Of a stretch of DNA of 64,000 nucleotides, positions 4,472-61,814 are shown piece after piece. The translations under genes were made by a program, and so were the position numbers. This stretch comes from a virus (taxonomy: Duplodnaviria > Heunggongvirae > Uroviricota > Caudoviricetes). Numbering within the stretch: the first letter of the stretch is position 1; each line of letters starts with the position of its first letter. The stretch lies in IMG/VR virus record IMGVR_UViG_3300036982_001423; one strand, 5' to 3'. The notes below the pieces were generated by a model, which did not search any database, was not told the DNA's origin, and was given only the letters and a program-made list of their open reading frames with translations.

Positions 4472-5671
4472 TTGCGAATTAAAATAAAGCGCAAGATACT
4501 GGTGATCACACTGAAGCATGTTTTATCCAAATCGCAATCGTCTCTAGAAGCATTCCAAGAGAAAGCGAGAGCAGAACACATCATAAAATTTGTCAAATCT
4601 CTTACTGAAAACAAACTTAAAATAATACAGTTGTTAGATTCAGGCTTATACCAAGCCGCAATCGCCCGCAGATTAAAACTTTCAAAATCATATATAAACC
4701 GATTCGTAAAAGAGTTATTACATAAAGGATGTATCTCAAAGGATTTCGTTAATCCTATAACTCATGTAGCTACATCGTACCTCATATCCCCTCAGTTAAA
4801 AGTTTATATTAAAAAACTAGAAACGTCAAAACCCAATTTTAATACGACATTAGCGATCCCCCATAACGTAAGATATAAATTCCCTATGATGGGAAAAAAA
4901 GTAAAAATATCGCTCAATACAAAACGTTTCGCCGCAGCGAAACTCAAAATGGAACGCGACTGGTGCATGCGTGGAGGAACGTGGTATAATTTCACTATGC
5001 GGCACGAACATATAGGGAATGTGGGTATCACAGTAACCCCCAGTTCATTATTAGTATATCAGAAAGACCGTTCTCCAATAATAGCCAAATCATGTGAAGA
5101 TGCAACGAATATCATAAGTATGAGTTTACACGAGGTTGCCAACAGGTTCGTGCAGGAACAGGCGTGGGAAAACGTGCATATAGAACTTGGACAACCAGAA
5201 CTTGTCGGAAGTCCCCATTTCGCTTTTAACAGTAAAATATCTCAAAAAATAGTTGCAGCGGGCAACGCACTCATGCAGGTAGGTAATGGATTAGAAATAG
5301 ATGACTCATTAAAGGGAAAATTCGATCAAGCAGAGATAGAAACTACAGATGCTACGCAAGCAGATTTAGTAGATAAGGGATTAAGAGTAGCAGCGGATAT
5401 TGAGAATATCGTTCCAGCAATGATCCAAAAGGAATTAAGATCAGTATCAGAGCAGGTATTAGGGATCAATGCACAAGCAGAGAAGATAGATTTAATCGTA
5501 AATTCAGTTCAAGCTCTTTGCCAGTCGGGACTTCCACGAGATCCAAGATTGGAACAACTTTTCAACGTCGTTGCAACTCAAGGAAAAACAATCAATCTCA
5601 TGCAAGAAAGCATGCTCGGAATCATCAAAAATATGGAATTAATGTTACACAATCAACAAAAAGGTGTTTGA
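4472..5671 (+). CDS. winged-HTH domain protein (putative transcription regulator) with large C-terminal domain
   Basis: N-terminal KLKIIQLLDSGLYQAAIARRLKLSKSYINRFVKELLHKGCI resembles an MarR/ArsR-like wHTH; 399 aa. Confidence 0.55.
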   Translation: MRIKIKRKILVITLKHVLSKSQSSLEAFQEKARAEHIIKFVKSLTENKLKIIQLLDSGLYQAAIARRLKLSKSYINRFVKELLHKGCISKDFVNPITHVATSYLISPQLKVYIKKLETSKPNFNTTLAIPHNVRYKFPMMGKKVKISLNTKRFAAAKLKMERDWCMRGGTWYNFTMRHEHIGNVGITVTPSSLLVYQKDRSPIIAKSCEDATNIISMSLHEVANRFVQEQAWENVHIELGQPELVGSPHFAFNSKISQKIVAAGNALMQVGNGLEIDDSLKGKFDQAEIETTDATQADLVDKGLRVAADIENIVPAMIQKELRSVSEQVLGINAQAEKIDLIVNSVQALCQSGLPRDPRLEQLFNVVATQGKTINLMQESMLGIIKNMELMLHNQQKGV

Positions 5672-6398
5672 AACGAGTCATCCAAACAAAACCTACACAA
5701 ATTTTTGCAAATTTTGTAAAAAAAAGTTTAAAACAAAAAATAAAATAAAATTATTCTGTTCAACAAACTGCTATGGAAAATGGCAATCAAAATACAGAAT
5801 AGGAAACAAGCATCATGGAACGGGAACAAAACAATCTCTTGAAACTAGAAAAAGAATATCAGAATCGATGAGTGGAAAAAACCACCCCAATTTTGGTATA
5901 AAATATTCAAAAGAAAGATGTTCCAAGATGAGTGAACGTAGTAAAGGAAAAAATAGTTATTGGTATAACAAAAAATTATCCCCCTCTCACGTAACTAATA
6001 TAATATCGGGAAATAAAAATAGCATCAAACGAAAATTAAACCCCCAAAAAAAAGGGATAGAATCTACGGCATGGTTAGGTGGAAAAACAAAAGAAAAATA
6101 CCCATCATTTTTAAGAGAGAAAACCGTTAATCGTATAATTTATGCAACTTATAGCAACAAATGTGTTATCTGCGGGGCATCTCCAGAGCAATCAAAAAAA
6201 GAAAGTAACTATGGATTAGCAAAACACCATTGGGATTATAACAAAAACTCAATTAATATTGTAACATTATGTAAAAAACATCACGATATGACTTCAATAA
6301 ACAAAGACCGCCCTTATTGGGAACAATACTTCCACGAACTAACAGCACTCACCTATGGGGGTACACCTATTATATTCAAAACGTTTCTAAAACCATGA
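5664..6398 (+). CDS. HNH homing endonuclease with NUMOD3 DNA-binding repeats
   Basis: Repeated E(T/E)RK(R/K)ISES..GK.HP..G motifs (NUMOD3); C-terminal CVICG...KHHWDYN...LCKKHHD HNH signature. Confidence 0.75.
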   Translation: MFETSHPNKTYTNFCKFCKKKFKTKNKIKLFCSTNCYGKWQSKYRIGNKHHGTGTKQSLETRKRISESMSGKNHPNFGIKYSKERCSKMSERSKGKNSYWYNKKLSPSHVTNIISGNKNSIKRKLNPQKKGIESTAWLGGKTKEKYPSFLREKTVNRIIYATYSNKCVICGASPEQSKKESNYGLAKHHWDYNKNSINIVTLCKKHHDMTSINKDRPYWEQYFHELTALTYGGTPIIFKTFLKP

Positions 6399-14529: not shown

Positions 14530-15621
14530 TTATTTATTTAGTTGAGCATATTCTTCTTTAGTATAGAAACATTTACCCCAATAGTCCTCATCAATAATCT
14601 TCTCAAATTTTTTGATCCATGTTAGTTTATCTTTTGCAACTTCCCCATGTTCTTTTGCAGTTAATAAAACAAATTTATTCGGATCTTCGCCCACATAATG
14701 CCGATACATATTAGGTTTTTTTGCAGTTCCAATATTAATCATCGCATAGTAACCGTGATCATCTTCAGACCATTCACAGCAAGCCCTCTCTTGCCAGTAT
14801 ACATGATGACGAGTTAATGCACGACCCCCATTATCTATTTTTGTTTTCTTAGAGAGGATACTACGATTATTTTGAAATGTATCGATTCTAACCCATAGAT
14901 CTTTATTCCACAATTCACAATATTTTTTCTTTCCATTATAACGAACATTCCCATACCAAAAACCGCCTACTTTTGCCTCCACAACTTTCATAGTGTGCAT
15001 TTCAGATTTAGGTCGTCCAATTTGTGCAAGACTCATCCGTTTACATGTTTCAGAAGTAAATGTTTGCCCTATATGTGCAATCCGCAGTTTTTCGCGGGTT
15101 ATTAAAGAAGCGGGCTTTCGTTTCGCTCTTACTTTCGGAATTTTCGGGATATCAACAAGTATTTTTACTGTCGCAACTTTATATTTAGATTCCCGTTGAG
15201 GTTTAATTTTAATTGGTCGGATTCGTTTTTTCTGGGATACGCTCATTCTTTTACGTGTTTCTTCTGACACGGGATTTAATACAGAACGTATCTTTAGGGC
15301 GTTTCGGATTTTATCTCTTGTGAGGGGGTTTTCCATCCGCTTTTTAGCCGCAACTCGCATACGTTCAAACGATTCAGCAGGAATTTCAAAATTAGTACGG
15401 TCATGTTTTTTAGTTATTATTTTTGCCGTATGTTCTTTTGATTGAATTTTTCCCTTATTTGCAATAGATAATTTTTTACGAGCCTCTGGAGAACGCATTC
15501 TCATTATAGCTGCATCAGATATTTTTTTACAATGTTCGGGAGTAAACCGTTTACCCCTATTTGCAACAGATAACTTTTGTCTCCAGTTCTTATATTTTAT
15601 AGGATCTTTTGGTGCAGGCAT
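14530..15621 (-). CDS. homing endonuclease, NUMOD3 repeats + HNH-like nuclease domain
   Basis: Only clear minus-strand gene; repeated RKKLSIANKGK / TRKRMSVSQKK / CKRMSLAQIGR NUMOD3-like motifs; C-terminal HH...N...H His-Me finger-like region. Confidence 0.7.
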   Translation of the reverse strand: MPAPKDPIKYKNWRQKLSVANRGKRFTPEHCKKISDAAIMRMRSPEARKKLSIANKGKIQSKEHTAKIITKKHDRTNFEIPAESFERMRVAAKKRMENPLTRDKIRNALKIRSVLNPVSEETRKRMSVSQKKRIRPIKIKPQRESKYKVATVKILVDIPKIPKVRAKRKPASLITREKLRIAHIGQTFTSETCKRMSLAQIGRPKSEMHTMKVVEAKVGGFWYGNVRYNGKKKYCELWNKDLWVRIDTFQNNRSILSKKTKIDNGGRALTRHHVYWQERACCEWSEDDHGYYAMINIGTAKKPNMYRHYVGEDPNKFVLLTAKEHGEVAKDKLTWIKKFEKIIDEDYWGKCFYTKEEYAQLNK

Positions 15622-27694: not shown

Positions 27695-27859
27695 ATGATG
27701 CTTTTTGGAATTACAGACGACGAAATTGAGATTATCATATCCGCATTACATACAACAGACCCGGATAAAAGTTTAAATGCAGTAAAAACACTTGAAAATA
27801 TCCTATTTACCCGACAGATCACAAAAGATACAATCATGGAGGTAATAAATCATGACTGA
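27695..27859 (+). CDS. hypothetical protein
   Basis: ATGATG after upstream stop. Confidence 0.5.
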   Translation: MMLFGITDDEIEIIISALHTTDPDKSLNAVKTLENILFTRQITKDTIMEVINHD

Positions 27860-28055
27860 AATACCCGAAAAAGAATACCAAGAAATTATAACGTTAAGTG
27901 AACGCATTAAGCGGAGAGGGTGGGAACAAGACGACGATTTGAAAAACTTAACTAATCTACTCCACGCTTTACATGGGGAAGGGATCAGAGGGCGGGAATA
28001 TACCCCCTCCGGCAAACCATCGGTGTTTGTAAATGGTATATGGGTGGAGAGATAA
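27852..28055 (+). CDS. hypothetical protein
   Basis: coupled ORF. Confidence 0.5.
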   Translation: MTEIPEKEYQEIITLSERIKRRGWEQDDDLKNLTNLLHALHGEGIRGREYTPSGKPSVFVNGIWVER

Positions 28056-43333: not shown

Positions 43334-43780
43334 ATGTCAGGAAAGGAAGAACTTAACGAAACGAATGAGATACTGTATGGAAAGAAGAACGCAAAGCCGG
43401 TAACTGATATTGTTACTAACGGTAAACCAGAGAAGGTCAAGACTGGCGGCGACGAACTGATGGATGAGATTTTGTATGGAAAGAAGAAATCTAAAGTTGC
43501 CAGTGGAGAGCCGAAAGCAAAGACTGATGGCGATGAGCTGATGGACGAAATCTTGTATGGCAAGAAGAAACCCAAGAAATCAGGCGACCCGACAGAAACC
43601 AAAGAACCGAAAGCAAAGACTGATGGCGAAGACCTGATGGATGAAATCTTGTATGGCAAGAAGAAACCCAAGAAATCTTCGGATAAGAACTATGTCGAAG
43701 CCATGACAGATGAGTTAGTTAAAGATGCGCCGAAACCAAAAGGCAAGAAGTTTGACAGGGATGAATATTTCGGGCTGTGA
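43334..43780 (+). CDS. tandem-repeat protein (4 x EILYGKKK / DELMDEILYGKKK units)
   Basis: SD AAAAGGAGTGTATAAATT-ATG; four repeats visible in translation and DNA. Confidence 0.6.
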   Translation: MSGKEELNETNEILYGKKNAKPVTDIVTNGKPEKVKTGGDELMDEILYGKKKSKVASGEPKAKTDGDELMDEILYGKKKPKKSGDPTETKEPKAKTDGEDLMDEILYGKKKPKKSSDKNYVEAMTDELVKDAPKPKGKKFDRDEYFGL

Positions 43781-44238
43781 ACCTGATGAGTGATGAGGTT
43801 GTAATCAAATACATCGAAGATGAAACGATTTTGTTAGAAGATACATATACATCTATTTTTACAATGAAAAGCGGGATTAAAGCGGGGATTGCGTTTCTGT
43901 GTTTTACAGTATTATTTTATGGAATAGGTTTATTTGCCTATACTCTTACAGCAAACCCCACCCCAATACCTATCATAAACTTTGTTATTATGGGTTTAAT
44001 AGTGACTGTATTATTAGCCGTTATGGGCGGTTCATTTAATGAAGAAATCCCTGCGTATGTAGTTAGATTACAAGGTCGATACAACACTCGCAGAGAAATC
44101 AAAAAAACTACGCCGGGTAATGATCAAATAGCGATATGTAGGGCGGCGAAGCAACTGGAAGCCGAAGCATGGGTGATTGTTAAGAAAGATCGTGAACTTG
44201 AACTAATCGCACAGAATTGTAACAAGGAGGTAAAATAA
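43777..44238 (+). CDS. membrane protein
   Basis: several TM helices. Confidence 0.55.
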   Translation: MNLMSDEVVIKYIEDETILLEDTYTSIFTMKSGIKAGIAFLCFTVLFYGIGLFAYTLTANPTPIPIINFVIMGLIVTVLLAVMGGSFNEEIPAYVVRLQGRYNTRREIKKTTPGNDQIAICRAAKQLEAEAWVIVKKDRELELIAQNCNKEVK

Positions 44239-44240
44239 CT

Positions 44241-45047
44241 ATGGAATTAAGTTTATCATTTTTAGCACAGTTTCGGAACTATTACGGCAAACCGTTTGAG
44301 ATCGTATCCGGGCGTAATGCATATACATTTGACAAAGACCGACATGCGAAGATGTTAGAGAAAGACGGTATTTATCTACTGTTAGAGAACCCGCCGCAAG
44401 ACAATCTGAAATACAAGTATGACAAAGCGTTGTTCATCGCTGCAAGGACGGCAGATAAATTCTTCCCGACAAATGATCCGGCGAAAGTCAAAGCCAGTTT
44501 CCATTTAGGCGCAGATAAGATGCGGTTTGAATTTCATCAGCAGATGCACAAACTGTATCAGACGCAAGCGTGTGTCTTAAAAGTAGTTAATTTCGATAAC
44601 ACCCGTAGGGATTACAGGATTGACCGGAAAGATTACGATTATCTGGTTAAGAACGACGGCGTGTTTGTATTCATCTATGTAGTAGGCGACAAACCGAACC
44701 TGATTATGGAAGTCGCCACACTGGCAGCGAAAAGCATAGTTGGGTTTAAGGATACTACGAAAAGTTCCCTGACGTTGCATTTCGAGTTGAGTGTATATAC
44801 ACTAAAGATGTTAGACGACCTCAAGATTAGATCGTTATTGACGAAAGAACCGAAAGTTCCCGCAGCCGTTGTAGAAACACAACCTGATGTATACCCAATG
44901 CCAGCAGAACAGATTGGGCAGACTACCTTCAAGGATGTAGATAATTATTTGGCGAAAGGATTACCAATAACTATTATCTTACCGGAAGGCAAGACAGAGT
45001 TAATCTTAACATGTACGATAATCAAACAAGAACGGAGAGCCGTATAA
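44241..45047 (+). CDS. hypothetical protein
   Basis: SD AACAAGGAGGTAAAATAACT-ATG; 268 aa. Confidence 0.6.
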   Translation: MELSLSFLAQFRNYYGKPFEIVSGRNAYTFDKDRHAKMLEKDGIYLLLENPPQDNLKYKYDKALFIAARTADKFFPTNDPAKVKASFHLGADKMRFEFHQQMHKLYQTQACVLKVVNFDNTRRDYRIDRKDYDYLVKNDGVFVFIYVVGDKPNLIMEVATLAAKSIVGFKDTTKSSLTLHFELSVYTLKMLDDLKIRSLLTKEPKVPAAVVETQPDVYPMPAEQIGQTTFKDVDNYLAKGLPITIILPEGKTELILTCTIIKQERRAV

Positions 45048-45250
45048 TGTTTGGAAACGTCCAACCGAATTTTGATATCACAACTACCCCACTTTTTGAG
45101 AAAGCCGTAGCGTGGTGGGAAGGGTATCGTCCGTGTGCATATACATTAGAGAAACACATGGCACGTCCGGGTATCAATATCCCTGATACCGCAGGTCAAG
45201 AGTTAGCTATTGAAATTGCGAGTATATTGAAAAACATGGAGAAACATTAA
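45047..45250 (+). CDS. hypothetical protein
   Basis: TAATG overlap. Confidence 0.5.
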   Translation: MFGNVQPNFDITTTPLFEKAVAWWEGYRPCAYTLEKHMARPGINIPDTAGQELAIEIASILKNMEKH

Positions 45251-45616
45251 ATGACAGACCGAGATAAAAGCGGGAGGTTCGTTAAGAAACAAGAACCGCC
45301 AGTATCGCAACCGAAGTATCCACATACAGAAGGGATATATTCAGCCATTCAGTATAAGGATAAACAGAAACAGAAATCATCAAATCTATTCTTAACTGGC
45401 ACAGTAATAGTAGCGTTATTTCTGGCTTTAGCATTAGGTTTGTTTCTCGGTATGGAATCCACAAAGAACCCGAATATCAGTAACAACGCAACGATGAAAC
45501 AGTATAATCAAGCACTGATACTTAACACCCAAAAAGAACTGATTGGTCAGATCATCGATTATGAAATAATGTATGGTTCAGGGTCAGTTAGGTGGAATGT
45601 GGGCGTAGACTTTTAA
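45251..45616 (+). CDS. membrane protein
   Basis: TM helix LFLTGTVIVALFLALALGLFLG. Confidence 0.55.
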   Translation: MTDRDKSGRFVKKQEPPVSQPKYPHTEGIYSAIQYKDKQKQKSSNLFLTGTVIVALFLALALGLFLGMESTKNPNISNNATMKQYNQALILNTQKELIGQIIDYEIMYGSGSVRWNVGVDF

Positions 45617-45719
45617 CTAAACAGGCGGGAAGCCCCCCGCGCAAGATGGGGGATGAAAACCATCACCCTATCAACAGAATCTATTAAATACTAATAAGTG
45701 TTATAACTGGTATCAAATT

Positions 45720-45860
45720 ATGAAAAACTATACAAAAGTAACTAAAAAGATCGACTGTAACCACAGGATACGGTTTGACAACACAGCATTGAGAGCTGCG
45801 GAAGCAGATAGTGGTGATACATTAGAGATATTATTCAAAGTGATCAAGAAAAAGGATTGA
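45720..45860 (+). CDS. small SpoVT/AbrB-like (swapped-hairpin) DNA-binding protein
   Basis: KVTKKIDCNHRIRFDNTALRAAEADSGDTLEI resembles the AbrB/MazE fold signature; stop overlaps tnpB start. Confidence 0.45.
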   Translation: MKNYTKVTKKIDCNHRIRFDNTALRAAEADSGDTLEILFKVIKKKD

Positions 45861-45861
45861 G

Positions 45862-46920
45862 ATGATCTTAACCTTCAAACTCAAGCATGAACAGAACTAT
45901 GATAGTCTGTTAAAGAAAGCGTTTGAAGTAGCGGAGTTTACGGTTGCTAATAAGATCCGATCCCCGAACACTACGTTTGTTAAAGATATACGGGGAGATT
46001 TACCGTCAATGATAGCATGTCAGGTGATGAAAAAGTATGGTCATCAGAAAACGATCAAAGCAGTTCACAATGCCAACTTAATTATACCGGGACAGGGTGT
46101 AAAGTATATTGAAGAAACGAACTCTATTTGGATACCGTGTCTGAAACTACATTTAGAGAATACTATTAATCGGACTTTCAGTAAGATCAACCAAGTAGAA
46201 GTTGACCGAGAGTTTGCGTATATTTCATGCACTGTAGCAGAACTACCGGAGATGATACCCTATGAAAATATCATAGGAGTTGACAGGAACACAACCGGAC
46301 ACATAGCCGTATCAGCGAACTTAACTACAGGTCAGGTAAGGATGATGGGTAAGAAAGCCCAACACCTCCATACAAAATACCGACAGTTAAGAACGGCTAT
46401 GCAAAAGGACGGACAGTATCGCAAGGTTGAACGGATCAAGAGCCGTGAAAGCCGGATCGTGAAGGACTTAAACCATAAGATCAGTCGTAAACTGGTTGAT
46501 ATGGCGAAAGTCCAACATGCAGCATTAGTATTCGAAAAACTGACGGGTATTCGAAATACTAAAAAACAATCCCGTTCATTCAAGCCATCCCTGCACAGTT
46601 GGTCATTCTATCAACTACAAACGTTCATAGAATACAAAGCCAAGCTGCTCGGAGTGCCTGTTATATACGTTGATCCCGCATACACTAGTCAAGACTGTTC
46701 TAAATGCGGTACAAGAGGACAACGATATAAAAAGGTGTTTAAGTGTCCTGCTTGTGGACACGCAGATCATGCAGACGTTAATGCAGCGTTCAATATTGCA
46801 AAACGTCAACAAACCATGATCGCTCGTATACAGACAAAGATGTGTACGATGGGAGCACTGATCTCCCACGACGACGCTCTGTTCGAACGCGAACACCGTT
46901 TAGAACCCCACGGTCTTTAG
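45862..46920 (+). CDS. tnpB: TnpB (IS200/IS605 OrfB) RuvC-like RNA-guided nuclease
   Basis: RuvC-I GVDRNT, RuvC-II E in LVFEKL, Zn finger CSKCG...CPACGH, RuvC-III HADVNAAFNIAKR. Confidence 0.85.
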   Translation: MILTFKLKHEQNYDSLLKKAFEVAEFTVANKIRSPNTTFVKDIRGDLPSMIACQVMKKYGHQKTIKAVHNANLIIPGQGVKYIEETNSIWIPCLKLHLENTINRTFSKINQVEVDREFAYISCTVAELPEMIPYENIIGVDRNTTGHIAVSANLTTGQVRMMGKKAQHLHTKYRQLRTAMQKDGQYRKVERIKSRESRIVKDLNHKISRKLVDMAKVQHAALVFEKLTGIRNTKKQSRSFKPSLHSWSFYQLQTFIEYKAKLLGVPVIYVDPAYTSQDCSKCGTRGQRYKKVFKCPACGHADHADVNAAFNIAKRQQTMIARIQTKMCTMGALISHDDALFEREHRLEPHGL

Positions 46921-46938
46921 ACGTGGGAGTAGGTCAGT
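46850..46938 (+). ncRNA. candidate omega-RNA (TnpB guide RNA scaffold) / IS right end; extent uncertain
   Basis: CTCCCACG (46863..46870) pairs with CGTGGGAG (46922..46929); inner hairpin CCCACG-gtctttaga-CGTGGG spans the tnpB stop codon. Confidence 0.3.
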
Positions 46939-47112
46939 ATGACTATAACATTAAAGCGTAGTACCTTTAACAAACCGGGTAACGTAATTATCGGGAAAGG
47001 CGACCCGATGTTTACCCCAACCCCGGAGAAACTCCGACAGTGGCGTGAACTTACGCACGAACCGGAGTGGAAAGTAGCGCAACGTAAAAAAGACAGAGCA
47101 TTTGATTGGTGA
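46939..47112 (+). CDS. small protein, paralog of 14081..14236
   Basis: MTITLKRSTFNKPGNVIIGKGDP vs MITLRKINHKREGGLIIGKGDP. Confidence 0.5.
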   Translation: MTITLKRSTFNKPGNVIIGKGDPMFTPTPEKLRQWRELTHEPEWKVAQRKKDRAFDW

Positions 47113-47117
47113 ACTTT

Positions 47118-47384
47118 ATGGCAGTCTTAACAGCAAAAAGAGTAAAAGAACTAAATGTGATTTTGAAACAGCACCGTCCAGACAAATATGCAGAAGGATG
47201 GCGAGCAACAGCAGAAGGGTGGCAACCAACCGCAGCAATCATCGCTGCATATAAACCGAGGAAAACTCCGTGCCGATACTGTGGGAATAAAACCTTTAAT
47301 TTTGCCGGATTGGGTACGGAAGTAACTCCAATGTGGGAATGTAAGAAATGTGATGCGTTACATAACGCCAGTCGAAAAAAATAA
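47118..47384 (+). CDS. Zn-ribbon protein
   Basis: CRYCGN...CKKCD. Confidence 0.55.
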   Translation: MAVLTAKRVKELNVILKQHRPDKYAEGWRATAEGWQPTAAIIAAYKPRKTPCRYCGNKTFNFAGLGTEVTPMWECKKCDALHNASRKK

Positions 47385-48067: not shown

Positions 48068-48273
48068 ACGGCATGGACGAAGATGAACTCACTGAGACGG
48101 AACTGGAACAGCGTGTCCGTGCATATACATGTAAACAATACCTGAAACGGAAAGGCTATATCTGCATGGATAAAACCGAATGGAATTGGTATGTCCAACG
48201 CAAACTTACATTCTTCGCAGCCATAGTAATATTCGCACTGGCAATTGGCATTATCATAGGTCAGGCGATGTAA
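48064..48273 (+). CDS. small membrane protein
   Basis: ATGA overlap; C-terminal TM helix. Confidence 0.5.
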   Translation: MNGMDEDELTETELEQRVRAYTCKQYLKRKGYICMDKTEWNWYVQRKLTFFAAIVIFALAIGIIIGQAM

Positions 48274-48722
48274 TGTTAGCGATCTTAAAATGTCCGAATT
48301 GCGGTAAAGTATATCCGGATTATAATGCAGGAAAGACGAGGGCATGTTGTCCGAATATTCAAGTATGTCAGGAAAAGTTCTGGATTGATAGTACGACAAT
48401 GATGAACGTAAAGTTCAGCACAGAATTCACTCCAGAACGAGATACTGCCTACATATACATCAATGTGTTCAACTCCAACTGTTATTTAGCCGTCAGAGCG
48501 TATTCTGAAGATGCAGGGAATTTCCTAGTAATCCCGTTAAGTGAACGCAAGATTGGCGAACTCACAAGAAAGAATACTTTATCAGCAATCCCGACAGATT
48601 TCAAGCACCAGTCTGCATGGGACGGGTTAGTTATCAAATCAGGTTGTTACCCGGTCAGTGCAGAGATGGAAAGAGAGATCCGGAAAAATCTATATGTTTC
48701 AGTACCAGAGGTTACAGCATGA
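48273..48722 (+). CDS. Zn-ribbon-containing protein
   Basis: CPNCGK...CCPNIQVC. Confidence 0.55.
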   Translation: MLAILKCPNCGKVYPDYNAGKTRACCPNIQVCQEKFWIDSTTMMNVKFSTEFTPERDTAYIYINVFNSNCYLAVRAYSEDAGNFLVIPLSERKIGELTRKNTLSAIPTDFKHQSAWDGLVIKSGCYPVSAEMEREIRKNLYVSVPEVTA

Positions 48723-61229: not shown

Positions 61230-61814
61230 ATGGCTGAACGTGTTATTGAAAGACAAGGTTCACGAATTTTAACACCTTCTCAATATTTGAGATTGCGTGA
61301 ACAGTTAGATCCTAACATTGGTTATCAATTAATTACTGATGCTCTTTTGAATACTGGTTTAAGAACCGTTGAATTCTGGCATCTTGTTGACAACCCCCAT
61401 TGGTATCACTCATCAAGTAGAGTAATAGATTTACCTGCGGTGGGTGCGGCAAAAAAACAAAAAAGTTCCAAAAAAGATAGGACAATCCGTTTAACGGAAA
61501 ATGGTTGTAAATCATTGGATACTTTATTTGCAGTGAAAATAAAATTTAAGGATAGAGATCAGATGGGAAAGGCATTAAAAAGAGCTGCTATAAAAGCAGG
61601 TTTTGGTGCAAGATATATCAATCCTAAGATGTTCAGAAAAATGTTAGTGAGTTATTTGTGTGATTGTAGAAAAGAATTGGGTATAGATGCATTAGATATC
61701 ACTGCAAATATGGGTCACGACGAAAAAACATTACGCGATCACTATCTGGGGATAGGGTTTAATGAAAAAGATCATTTAGAAATACTTGAATTTTTACAGG
61801 GGTGGAAATTATAA
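61230..61814 (+). CDS. tyrosine recombinase / integrase (catalytic domain only, 194 aa)
   Basis: Box I LRTVEF (Arg), box II MGHDEKTLRDHYLGI (His ... Arg ... Tyr nucleophile). Confidence 0.65.
   Translation: MAERVIERQGSRILTPSQYLRLREQLDPNIGYQLITDALLNTGLRTVEFWHLVDNPHWYHSSSRVIDLPAVGAAKKQKSSKKDRTIRLTENGCKSLDTLFAVKIKFKDRDQMGKALKRAAIKAGFGARYINPKMFRKMLVSYLCDCRKELGIDALDITANMGHDEKTLRDHYLGIGFNEKDHLEILEFLQGWKL

Follow-up and report, generated by a model that had tools for sequence, protein, structure and literature searches.

A transposase-less IS200/IS605-family element with an AbrB/MazE-like gene beside tnpB in an uncultured virus, and its empty allele in a related virus

What keeps a gene for an RNA-guided nuclease in a stretch of viral DNA that lacks the transposase usually encoded beside it? 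This question is raised by positions 45,617 to 47,112 of a 64,000-nucleotide stretch of DNA (hereafter the window; one strand, 5' to 3') from the IMG/VR virus record IMGVR_UViG_3300036982_001423, a member of the Caudoviricetes, in which tnpB lies immediately behind a 46-codon open reading frame (ORF). We found that positions 45617..46937 are a discrete 1,321-bp element of the IS200/IS605 family, inserted precisely between two viral genes that remain joined in a related virus. The gene content of the element and of its relatives marks the window copy as a non-autonomous, tnpA-less (IS1341-type) derivative of that lineage, and the likeliest function of its predicted nuclease is cutting followed by copy-repair, that is, homing.

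A discrete insertion with an empty allele in related viruses

The extent of the element was fixed by comparison with an uninterrupted site, which the initial annotation of this locus had called for. The upstream neighbour of the element (45251..45616) encodes a 121-aa protein, and a search with this protein as query returned a 73%-identical homologue on two contigs of related viruses (L212 and L213). In both contigs a 57-aa gene starts one base after that homologue, its product being identical at 56 of 57 positions to the product of window gene 46939..47112. The two flanking genes are thus joined directly, with GACTTTTAA followed at once by TATGACTATAAC and no insert. In its longer form the empty junction reads GTAGACTTTTAA and then TATGACTATAAC, and the window reads GTAGACTTTTAA, then the insert CTAAACAGG...GAGTAGGTCAG, then TATGACTATAAC, which sets the exact extent of the insert at 45617..46937. 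The element occupies the 1-nt spacer between the two viral genes, and it went in 3' of a TTAA (which includes the TAA stop codon of the upstream gene) without duplicating its target. The existence of this empty allele fits a homing reading of the locus.

Beyond the junction itself, L212 is collinear with the window through 45616 at 82% identity and again from 46938 at 96%. We also observed that the 96% identity of the right flank (46938-47121) extends over 184 bp, after which homology ends, whereas the left flank (44220-45616) reaches only 82%; this contrast could be a co-conversion tract left by homing or merely reflect a conserved gene. Filled copies were recovered from other samples on two contigs (L214 and L215), both 100% identical to the window copy. 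A blastn search with the locus against phage records gave no match, and the flanking proteins (121 aa and 268 aa) had no relatives in IMG/VR.

Both ends of the element follow the pattern of its family. At the right end (RE), an alignment of more than 30 relatives loses all homology immediately after ...GAG(T/G)A(T/G)GTCAG, where unrelated sequences begin. The four elements L001-L004, which are identical, continue past GTCAG into three different flanks, and the empty site confirms the right boundary at 46937. The left end (LE) is closest to that of the outer insertion sequence (IS) of locus L131 (86% identity over 51 nt) and shows the arrangement common to the family, namely GAAAG, GAAG or GAAAA, a hairpin and GGGATGAA. 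The left-end hairpin that had been reported for the window is indeed present, in the place of the LE hairpin of related IS200/IS605 elements. Across 18 left ends, 73% of cells at this position were paired, compared with 65% in shuffled controls and 44-57% with slid partners, and pair 33/49 occurs as CG in 10 of the 18 sequences and as AU in the other 8. The element accordingly has the distinct left and right ends of the IS200/IS605 family, each with a subterminal hairpin and with no terminal inverted repeats, as well as insertion 3' of a short target without duplication; the remaining hallmark, a Y1 TnpA encoded within the element, is missing.

As the hairpins of the two ends differ, we considered an origin of LE and RE from different elements. 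Such a chimera is not required, because the outer IS of L131 has the same combination of LE and RE types together with tnpA. That outer element carries a CCCCC-type LE hairpin and a CCCACG-type RE hairpin, like the window element, and the locus is nested (L131, 2090-4141): its inner IS200/IS605 element, which encodes a 383-aa TnpB, has inserted after TCAA into the tnpA of the outer one. A separate observation concerns the left flank of the window element, where positions 45601-45612 (GTGGGCGTAGAC) resemble the element's own right-end tail at 46924-46936 (GTGGGAGTAGGTC). A like resemblance is seen in the outer IS of L131 (2075-2090 and 4118-4131) and is missing from L002 and L065; it could be target mimicry or chance.

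The nuclease gene and the RNA within its 3' end

The product of tnpB passes both Pfam PF07282 (92.9 bits, cut-off 26.3) and NCBIfam NF040570 guided_TnpB, the 'RNA-guided endonuclease TnpB family' (183.7 bits, cut-off 100). In a collection of 5.8 billion proteins it had 1,923 homologues at E<=1e-3, the top one sharing 88% identity across 87% of the query and the top full-length ones 78%. In an alignment of 25 sequences (44-78% identity), D141, E225, D305 and C295 were invariant, and C279, C282 and C298 were at least 90% conserved, the four cysteines making up the two CxxC pairs (C279/C282 and C295/C298) of a zinc finger. A profile search aligned D141, E225 and D305 with the GVD, E and ADxNA motifs of the solved TnpB 9nzp. 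The best matches in the PDB were 9nzp (E 2.9e-30) and the Cas12f group, making TnpB/Cas12f the nearest group. The ratio of nonsynonymous to synonymous substitution rates (dN/dS) for tnpB was 0.08-0.25 against five relatives. Judged by these features, the nuclease is intact and under purifying selection; the three RuvC motifs and zinc finger recognised in the initial annotation stand, with no inactivating substitutions. Within the window there was no second copy of TnpB, of the RE or of the guide.

A further comparison is with L065, a sister tnpA-less element (TnpB 77% identical, right end 95% identical). Beside it, tnpB looks mosaic, the last ~180 nt (46760-46937) being 95% identical to L065 1722-1900 and the whole protein 77%. 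Synonymous divergence (dS) of tnpB from L065 is 0.54, compared with more than 1.3 from other relatives.

The 3' end of the gene had been proposed to form a structured omega-RNA scaffold spanning the stop codon. We aligned the 224-254 nt ending at the right end in 32 elements and evaluated the alignment with RNAalifold and explicit pair counts. This revealed a conserved, covarying fold (Table 1), although its architecture is different from, and larger than, the one first proposed. The inner hairpin over the stop codon is part of it: it corresponds to terminal hairpin C, whose UUUA loop and stem contain the TAG (46918-20). By contrast, the proposed 8-bp long-range stem between CTCCCACG (46863-70) and CGTGGGAG (46922-29) is present in the sequence but was paired in 48.4% of cells, the same as in shuffled and slid controls, and is either chance or specific to the lineage. 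Hairpin D was misaligned by MAFFT (47% paired), and its presence throughout the alignment comes from a check of each sequence. The loop of this local hairpin, GAACGC, is also the 3' strand of the 5'-to-loop helix, whose other strand, GCGUUC, is part of the sequence encoding the RuvC-III motif. One pair of the helix involves a codon wobble position and occurs as G-C in 21 sequences, as U-A in 5, as A-U in 4 and as C-G in 1. The arrangement is either a loop-to-5'-strand pseudoknot or two alternative folds.

The overall covariation score was 0.46, compared with 0.16 for shuffled alignments and ~0.1 with slid partners, and the minimum free energy of the window segment had a z-score of -2.6. A covariance model built from the alignment, the kind of check that had been suggested for the 3' region, recovered held-out relatives at 79-216 bits and scored the window copy at 212 bits, as the single genuine copy in the window. 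The scaffold is buried in the last ~150 nt of tnpB; because this part of the gene encodes a poorly conserved C-terminal tail, the covarying helices within it argue for selection at the RNA level. We rejected a weak second hit of the model (48261-48371), which comprised only unstructured zinc-finger coding columns and a chance AGTATGTCAG (48362-48371) with no hairpin. This AGTATGTCAG, which matches the right-end terminus consensus, lies within ORF 48180-48722 beside a CPNCG zinc-finger coding stretch and was judged to be chance. A search of Rfam at gathering thresholds found nothing in the window; a permissive scan gave one meaningful match, to HgcC (RF00062), at 23 bits against a gathering threshold of 50, and in a larger search the relatives had no match to HgcC at E<=0.1. 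By these scores the relation to HgcC is one of resemblance, not membership.

In characterized IS200/IS605 TnpB systems, the flank that immediately follows the right end supplies the guide, and the transposon-associated motif (TAM) equals the transposon target (PMC8612924; PMC10055086). The corresponding candidate guide in the window overlaps the start of downstream gene 46939..47112 and is unique in the window. A target for the guide segment, the search for which had been recommended, is present in the empty allele of L212, where TTAA is followed by a perfect match of 24 nt. An exact 16-nt search with the guide in IMG/VR gave 63 hits, none of them beyond chance or sharing the left flank. The only new evidence on the target is that the empty allele exists in a related virus.

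These results bear on the possibility that the element is an inert relic, a young dead insertion whose ORFs persist by youth while nuclease and small ORF lie idle. Its lack of tnpA and short LE hairpin would suit such a relic, but the dN/dS values, the retention of all catalytic and zinc residues and the intact state of every covarying RNA helix in the window copy, reflected in its score against the model, all speak against it, as does the membership of the small ORF in a conserved family whose GD motif is invariant (see below). We consider this explanation improbable.

Table 1. Positions of the element's features in the window, with the basis of each assignment
Feature	Position	Strand	Basis or remark
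Target and candidate TAM, TTAA	45613..45616	+	directly 5' of the insert; empty site GACTTTTAA/TATGAC, window GACTTTTAA-insert-TATGAC
Left end, starting CTAAACAGGCGGGAAG	45617..45661	+	45617 is the first base missing from the empty site
LE subterminal hairpin, CCCCC-N9-GGGGG	45634..45652	+	five G-C pairs and a possible G-T; arms 45634-38 / 45648-52
TATA-box-like motif TATTAAAT, candidate element promoter	45682..45689	+	30 nt upstream of the small ORF
Gene for probable AbrB/MazE-fold (swapped-hairpin, GD-box) protein, 46 aa	45720..45860	+	homologues, profile links, AlphaFold2 model
tnpB, 352 aa	45862..46920	+	Pfam and NCBIfam matches, catalytic triad, zinc finger
Minimal omega-RNA scaffold (predicted)	46786..46937	+	RNAalifold, covariation counts, covariance model
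5'-to-loop helix, GCGUUC/GAACGC	46786-91/46885-90	+	97% paired
Stem A	46824-32/46841-49	+	99% of cells paired, 7/9 pairs compensatory
Stem B	46850-53/46865-68	+	G-C/C-G and G-C/U-A swaps
Hairpin D	46880-85/46890-95	+	in 32/32 sequences, at least 10 different stem sequences
Terminal hairpin C, the right-end subterminal hairpin	46907-15/46920-27	+	94% paired, 7/8 pairs compensatory
Right-end terminus AGTAGGTCAG	46928..46937	+	element ends after GTCAG
Predicted guide TATGACTATAACATTAAAGC, ~16-20 nt	46938..46957	+	position rule of IS200/IS605 omega-RNAs (PMC8612924, PMC10691335)

A small gene in the transposase slot

In the genomic contexts of relatives, the gene for the Y1 HUH transposase (PF01797) lies directly upstream of tnpB and overlaps it. 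Relatives at 45-78% identity carry this Y1_Tnp gene within the same LE and RE, and tblastn with one such TnpA located it in ~35 fetched loci, always in that position. The same tblastn search found no tnpA in the 64-kb window, and a hidden Markov model of the TnpA family, run with filters off against the six-frame translation of the whole window, gave a best E of 0.4. No remnant of tnpA was detected between the LE and tnpB. The lack of a HUH TnpA, first remarked on in the initial annotation, therefore holds across all 64 kb. With tnpA directly upstream of tnpB in relatives and none in the window, the element is best classed as a tnpA-less derivative of the IS200/IS605 lineage; IS1341-type copies, in which tnpB alone lies between IS ends, are frequent and open to mobilisation in trans (PMC10691335). 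Solo relatives with no partner gene at all also exist (for example, L076 and the context of P0004).

The small ORF occupies exactly the slot that tnpA fills in nearly all relatives, a correspondence that had gone unnoticed in the initial annotation. The ORF had been described there as AbrB/MazE-like and as coupled, stop to start, with tnpB. The coupling is as described, the TGA stop (45858-60) being followed by one base and then the ATG of tnpB. The window protein itself had no match in Pfam, PHROGs or NCBIfam even at E<=10. A word-indexed search returned a single 93%-identical protein (P0121), encoded in the same arrangement with the next gene 2 nt later, and an exhaustive search of 1.8 billion representatives gave 9 hits and yielded six further small homologues (45-76% identity, 46-63 aa). 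The family is small but real, and a Y, a K, a T, two A, GD, an E and a K are invariant in it. Its profile matches the N-domain of VCP-like ATPases (VAT-N) and designed double-psi barrel halves (E 1e-4 to 2e-3) over the span ...RI.lD...L.a..a..GD.vEi..., and one family member matches PF04014 MazE_antitoxin at E=0.017. The profile also picked up an archaeal protein of 47 aa in L129, which in its own right exceeds the PF04014 cut-off (27.9 against 24.7 bits), and hhalign assigned this link a probability of 92%.

Structure prediction was consistent with these links. The AlphaFold2 (AF2) model built with the alignment had a mean confidence (pLDDT) of 85.3 and consisted of one helix, the rest being extended chain, which is expected because the sheets of this fold form only in the dimer. 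It superseded a single-sequence AF2 model, which was of low confidence and misleadingly helical. Almost all of the twelve Foldseek hits in the PDB were of the AbrB/SpoVT type or half-barrels (cradle-loop), including AbrB-N and SpoVT (the top hits), an archaeal histone-like protein, half-barrel peptides and MraZ, with E values of 1.8-8 that are non-significant at this length. Given the profile matches, the transitive link to PF04014 and the model, the AbrB/MazE assignment is probably right.

A different small gene is found in the sister element L065, where a 47-aa ORF in the same slot has weak matches to ribbon-helix-helix (RHH) proteins (NikA, TacA and an Arc-like PHROG; E ~0.05). Upstream of the small ORF in the window lies a candidate promoter motif (Table 1). 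Relatives have A/T-rich, TATATA-type motifs in the same spacer between the LE and the first gene, and a scan for sigma-70 promoters found nothing above background. Repression of IS605 elements by the small protein Arc has been reported (bioRxiv 10.64898/2026.09.24.754181), and by analogy the small protein of the window is probably a repressor of the left-end promoter.

A small AbrB/MazE-like gene that is upstream of tnpB and translationally adjacent to it might instead suggest a toxin-antitoxin-like module, in which a TnpB-RNA toxin and an AbrB/MazE-fold antitoxin would serve addiction or an abortive role rather than homing. This has been hypothesized for an archaeal clade of RHH/MazE-TnpB pairs (PMC10691335), and the RHH-like ORF in the same slot of L065 would agree with it. 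The idea fits less well here because the features that define the archaeal clade are not found: its nucleases have a rearranged catalytic site, its loci are immobile and their 3' untranslated regions are long, whereas the window element has a canonical D-E-D triad, IS ends, an insertion polymorphism and an RNA within the coding sequence. In addition, the only match of the guide is to the empty viral junction, with no other in the window, and the partnerless solo relatives do without any antitoxin candidate. A toxin-antitoxin role is thus very unlikely.

Proposed homing in a viral setting and comparison with known systems

The explanation that best joins these observations, to which we give a probability of roughly 0.7, is a tnpA-less IS200/IS605 element that would be maintained by RNA-guided homing or retention and carry a small repressor. 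A single transcript starting in the left end would carry the genes for TnpB and for a small DNA-binding protein, probably of AbrB/MazE fold. Towards its 3' end, at least from 46786 to 46937, this RNA would fold as the omega-RNA scaffold, with the next ~16-20 nt of flank as guide; self-processing of tnpB mRNA into omega-RNA has been described (PMC10278001). The TnpB-RNA complex would recognise TTAA followed by TATGACTATAACATTA..., a site that insertion of the element destroys and that should exist only in genomes free of it, whether those of a related co-infecting virus or copies from which it has been lost. TnpB would cut this site, and recombinational repair from the filled genome would copy the element in, giving homing or retention, with harm to a competitor as a side effect of cutting. 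Transposition to new sites would need a Y1 transposase in trans. The small protein would most likely repress its own promoter, as Arc does in IS605, or alternatively restrain TnpB. Transcription and processing are inferred here, as are the TTAA TAM, cleavage, homing and what the small protein does; homing appears likeliest because the guide matches the empty allele of a related virus for 24 nt after TTAA. Homing by TnpB has been published (PMC10055086; reviewed in PMC13565253).

Several observations weigh against this explanation. The match between guide and target is true by construction for any IS200/IS605 insertion. The LE stem in the window is weaker and shorter than the 7-9 bp of relatives and, together with the absence of tnpA in 64 kb, suggests that transposition may be dead; the 100% identity of the three sampled copies (window, L214 and L215) gives no sign of ongoing movement. 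The target here is TTAA, whereas related elements, including those of the closest TnpB relatives, sit after TTAC or TTAT, and TAM recognition by this TnpB is a prediction. In the subclade of the window, hairpin D (with a 4-nt loop) and the 5'-to-loop helix compete for the closing pair. Lastly, homologues of the small protein also adjoin genes other than tnpB, one lying directly upstream of a gene for a protein of unknown type (L147, 1228-1709) and another directly upstream of a PD-(D/E)XK nuclease gene (L148, 555-1726). The small protein is consequently not TnpB-specific and may be a general viral regulator captured by chance.

The same chemistry would serve a domesticated viral weapon: an immobile element whose TnpB and omega-RNA are kept to destroy insertion-free competitors (marker exclusion), copying being incidental. 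The absence of tnpA, the weakened LE hairpin and the identity of the copies across three samples are all compatible with such a role, as are the relative that carries an empty allele with a perfect target, the other nuclease-type selfish genes in the genome and the precedent of homing nucleases in competition between viruses (PMC11620839). Sequence cannot separate the two explanations, but LE and RE are both still recognisable, and a single fixed guide would protect only against relatives with exactly this junction. We therefore regard a dedicated weapon as unlikely.

A bolder form of the homing explanation is tentative and somewhat doubtful. Here the clade would have replaced its transposase more than once by a tiny DNA-binding partner (probably of AbrB fold in the window, RHH-like in L065), giving a transposase-independent, RNA-guided homing cassette that acts as a gene drive between co-infecting viruses, with the partner being no passenger but an integral component that regulates or inhibits the nuclease. 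A 2026 review (PMC13565253) discusses non-restorative homing between co-infecting phages or plasmids and names it as still to be validated; if the bolder form were true, the filled allele in the window and the empty allele in L212 would be a natural snapshot of non-restorative transposon homing.

The genomic setting is that of an uncultured virus or virus-like element, likely with an archaeal host: the genome-resolved relatives of its TnpB (~50% identity) come from Micrarchaeota and a Thaumarchaeota metagenome-assembled genome. The window is gene-dense, with nearly all genes on one strand and few family matches, among them an AAA ATPase, an SPFH protein, a methylase, NUMOD3 and homing-endonuclease-like ORFs and a weak integrase match; neither a tRNA nor a CRISPR-like array was found in it. 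A lone minus-strand ORF of 363 aa (14530-15621) matches a PHROG homing endonuclease, with a dip in GC skew at 14-18 kb, and ORF 5664-6398 (+) has NUMOD3 motifs, so further selfish genes of the nuclease type are present in the genome. Homologues of three window ORFs (5664-6398, 27852-28055 and 61230-61814) occur on contigs that carry related IS605 copies, two of these contigs being in IMG/VR. The last of the three (194 aa) has a weak Phage_integrase match (E 2e-4, below cut-off) and shares 38% identity with an ORF located just 5' of a related IS605 copy in L146. Another ORF, 43334-43780 (148 aa, lysine-rich), contains four tandem copies of (D/E)(E/D)LMDEILYGKKK. Among other contigs with related elements, L001 (1887-5069) has two different tnpB genes 1 kb apart on an 83-kb contig with many small ORFs that is binned as Chitinivibrionales; the contig looks viral, and this binning may be unreliable.

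TnpB genes are common in phages and archaeal viruses (bioRxiv 10.1101/2023.08.02.551345), and 351 phage records encode relatives of the TnpB studied here. As TnpB-only elements, virus-borne TnpB and RHH/MazE-TnpB pairs have all been published, the element is a clear and fairly ordinary member of a very common family and leaves current understanding of that family unchanged. Its modest twist is the combination of a probable AbrB-fold gene in the transposase slot with a natural pair of filled and empty alleles. That sister elements have AbrB-like or RHH-like genes in place of tnpA strengthens recent evidence that elements of the IS605 type bring along small regulators of their own, and filled and empty alleles in related environmental viruses provide a concrete case for asking whether TnpB elements spread between viruses without a transposase. 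The compact TnpB also looks active, and with its right end, guide position, candidate TAM and natural target defined from sequence alone, the element could directly enter a cleavage or homing assay.

Among known systems, the closest are the IS1341-type members of IS200/IS605, with which the element shares asymmetric ends with subterminal hairpins, insertion 3' of a 4-nt target without duplication, and a tnpB at the right end that overlaps its predicted guide RNA. It differs from them in the probable AbrB-fold gene in the tnpA slot, the TTAA target, the viral genome and the known natural empty allele. The RuvC D-E-D triad and zinc ribbon are common to the TnpB-omegaRNA nucleases (ISDra2 TnpB, 8bf8 and 8h1j; 9nzp) and to Cas12f (8hr5, 8j12 and 7wju), as are, by prediction, a scaffold drawn from the 3' end of tnpB and the RE and a guide taken from the adjacent flank. 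Unlike the solved proteins, the window protein is smaller, only residues ~115-324 align and its N-terminal half has no sequence match; a CRISPR array, expected for Cas12f, is missing, and NF049972 (Cas12f2) scores 143 bits against a cut-off of 450. In its RNA the element resembles HgcC and the archaeal sotRNAs at the 3' ends of IS1341-type tnpB (PMC4615843), with a stem B that has a CACUGAU-type loop, a CUUUAG terminal hairpin, a ...GAG(G/U)AGGUCAG terminus followed by variable sequence, and overlap with the tnpB 3' end. A tetraloop hairpin like that of the right end, known from archaeal RNAs at the 3' ends of IS1341-type tnpB genes that they overlap, has been recognised as an unannotated motif of the HgcC family (PMC4615843). 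The score against HgcC nonetheless stays below its threshold, and the central part is 11 nt long compared with 49 nt.

The small gene recalls both Arc (RHH; bioRxiv 10.64898/2026.09.24.754181) and the archaeal RHH/MazE-TnpB clade (PMC10691335), in which a very small, dimeric DNA-binding protein of RHH or AbrB/MazE fold is likewise encoded beside tnpB. Elements with Arc usually keep tnpA, whereas in the window the small gene replaces it; with the archaeal clade, given its rearranged active site and immobility against the canonical site and intact ends seen here, only the upstream gene for a small, probably DNA-binding protein is shared. Finally, the element resembles free-standing homing endonucleases of phages (such as T4 SegF; PMC13565253), in that a nuclease gene is wedged between conserved viral genes and would cut the allele of a co-infecting relative, to be copied by repair. 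It departs from them in that the target would be read by RNA pairing and a TAM rather than by protein, and in that self and non-self would be set by the presence or absence of the insert.

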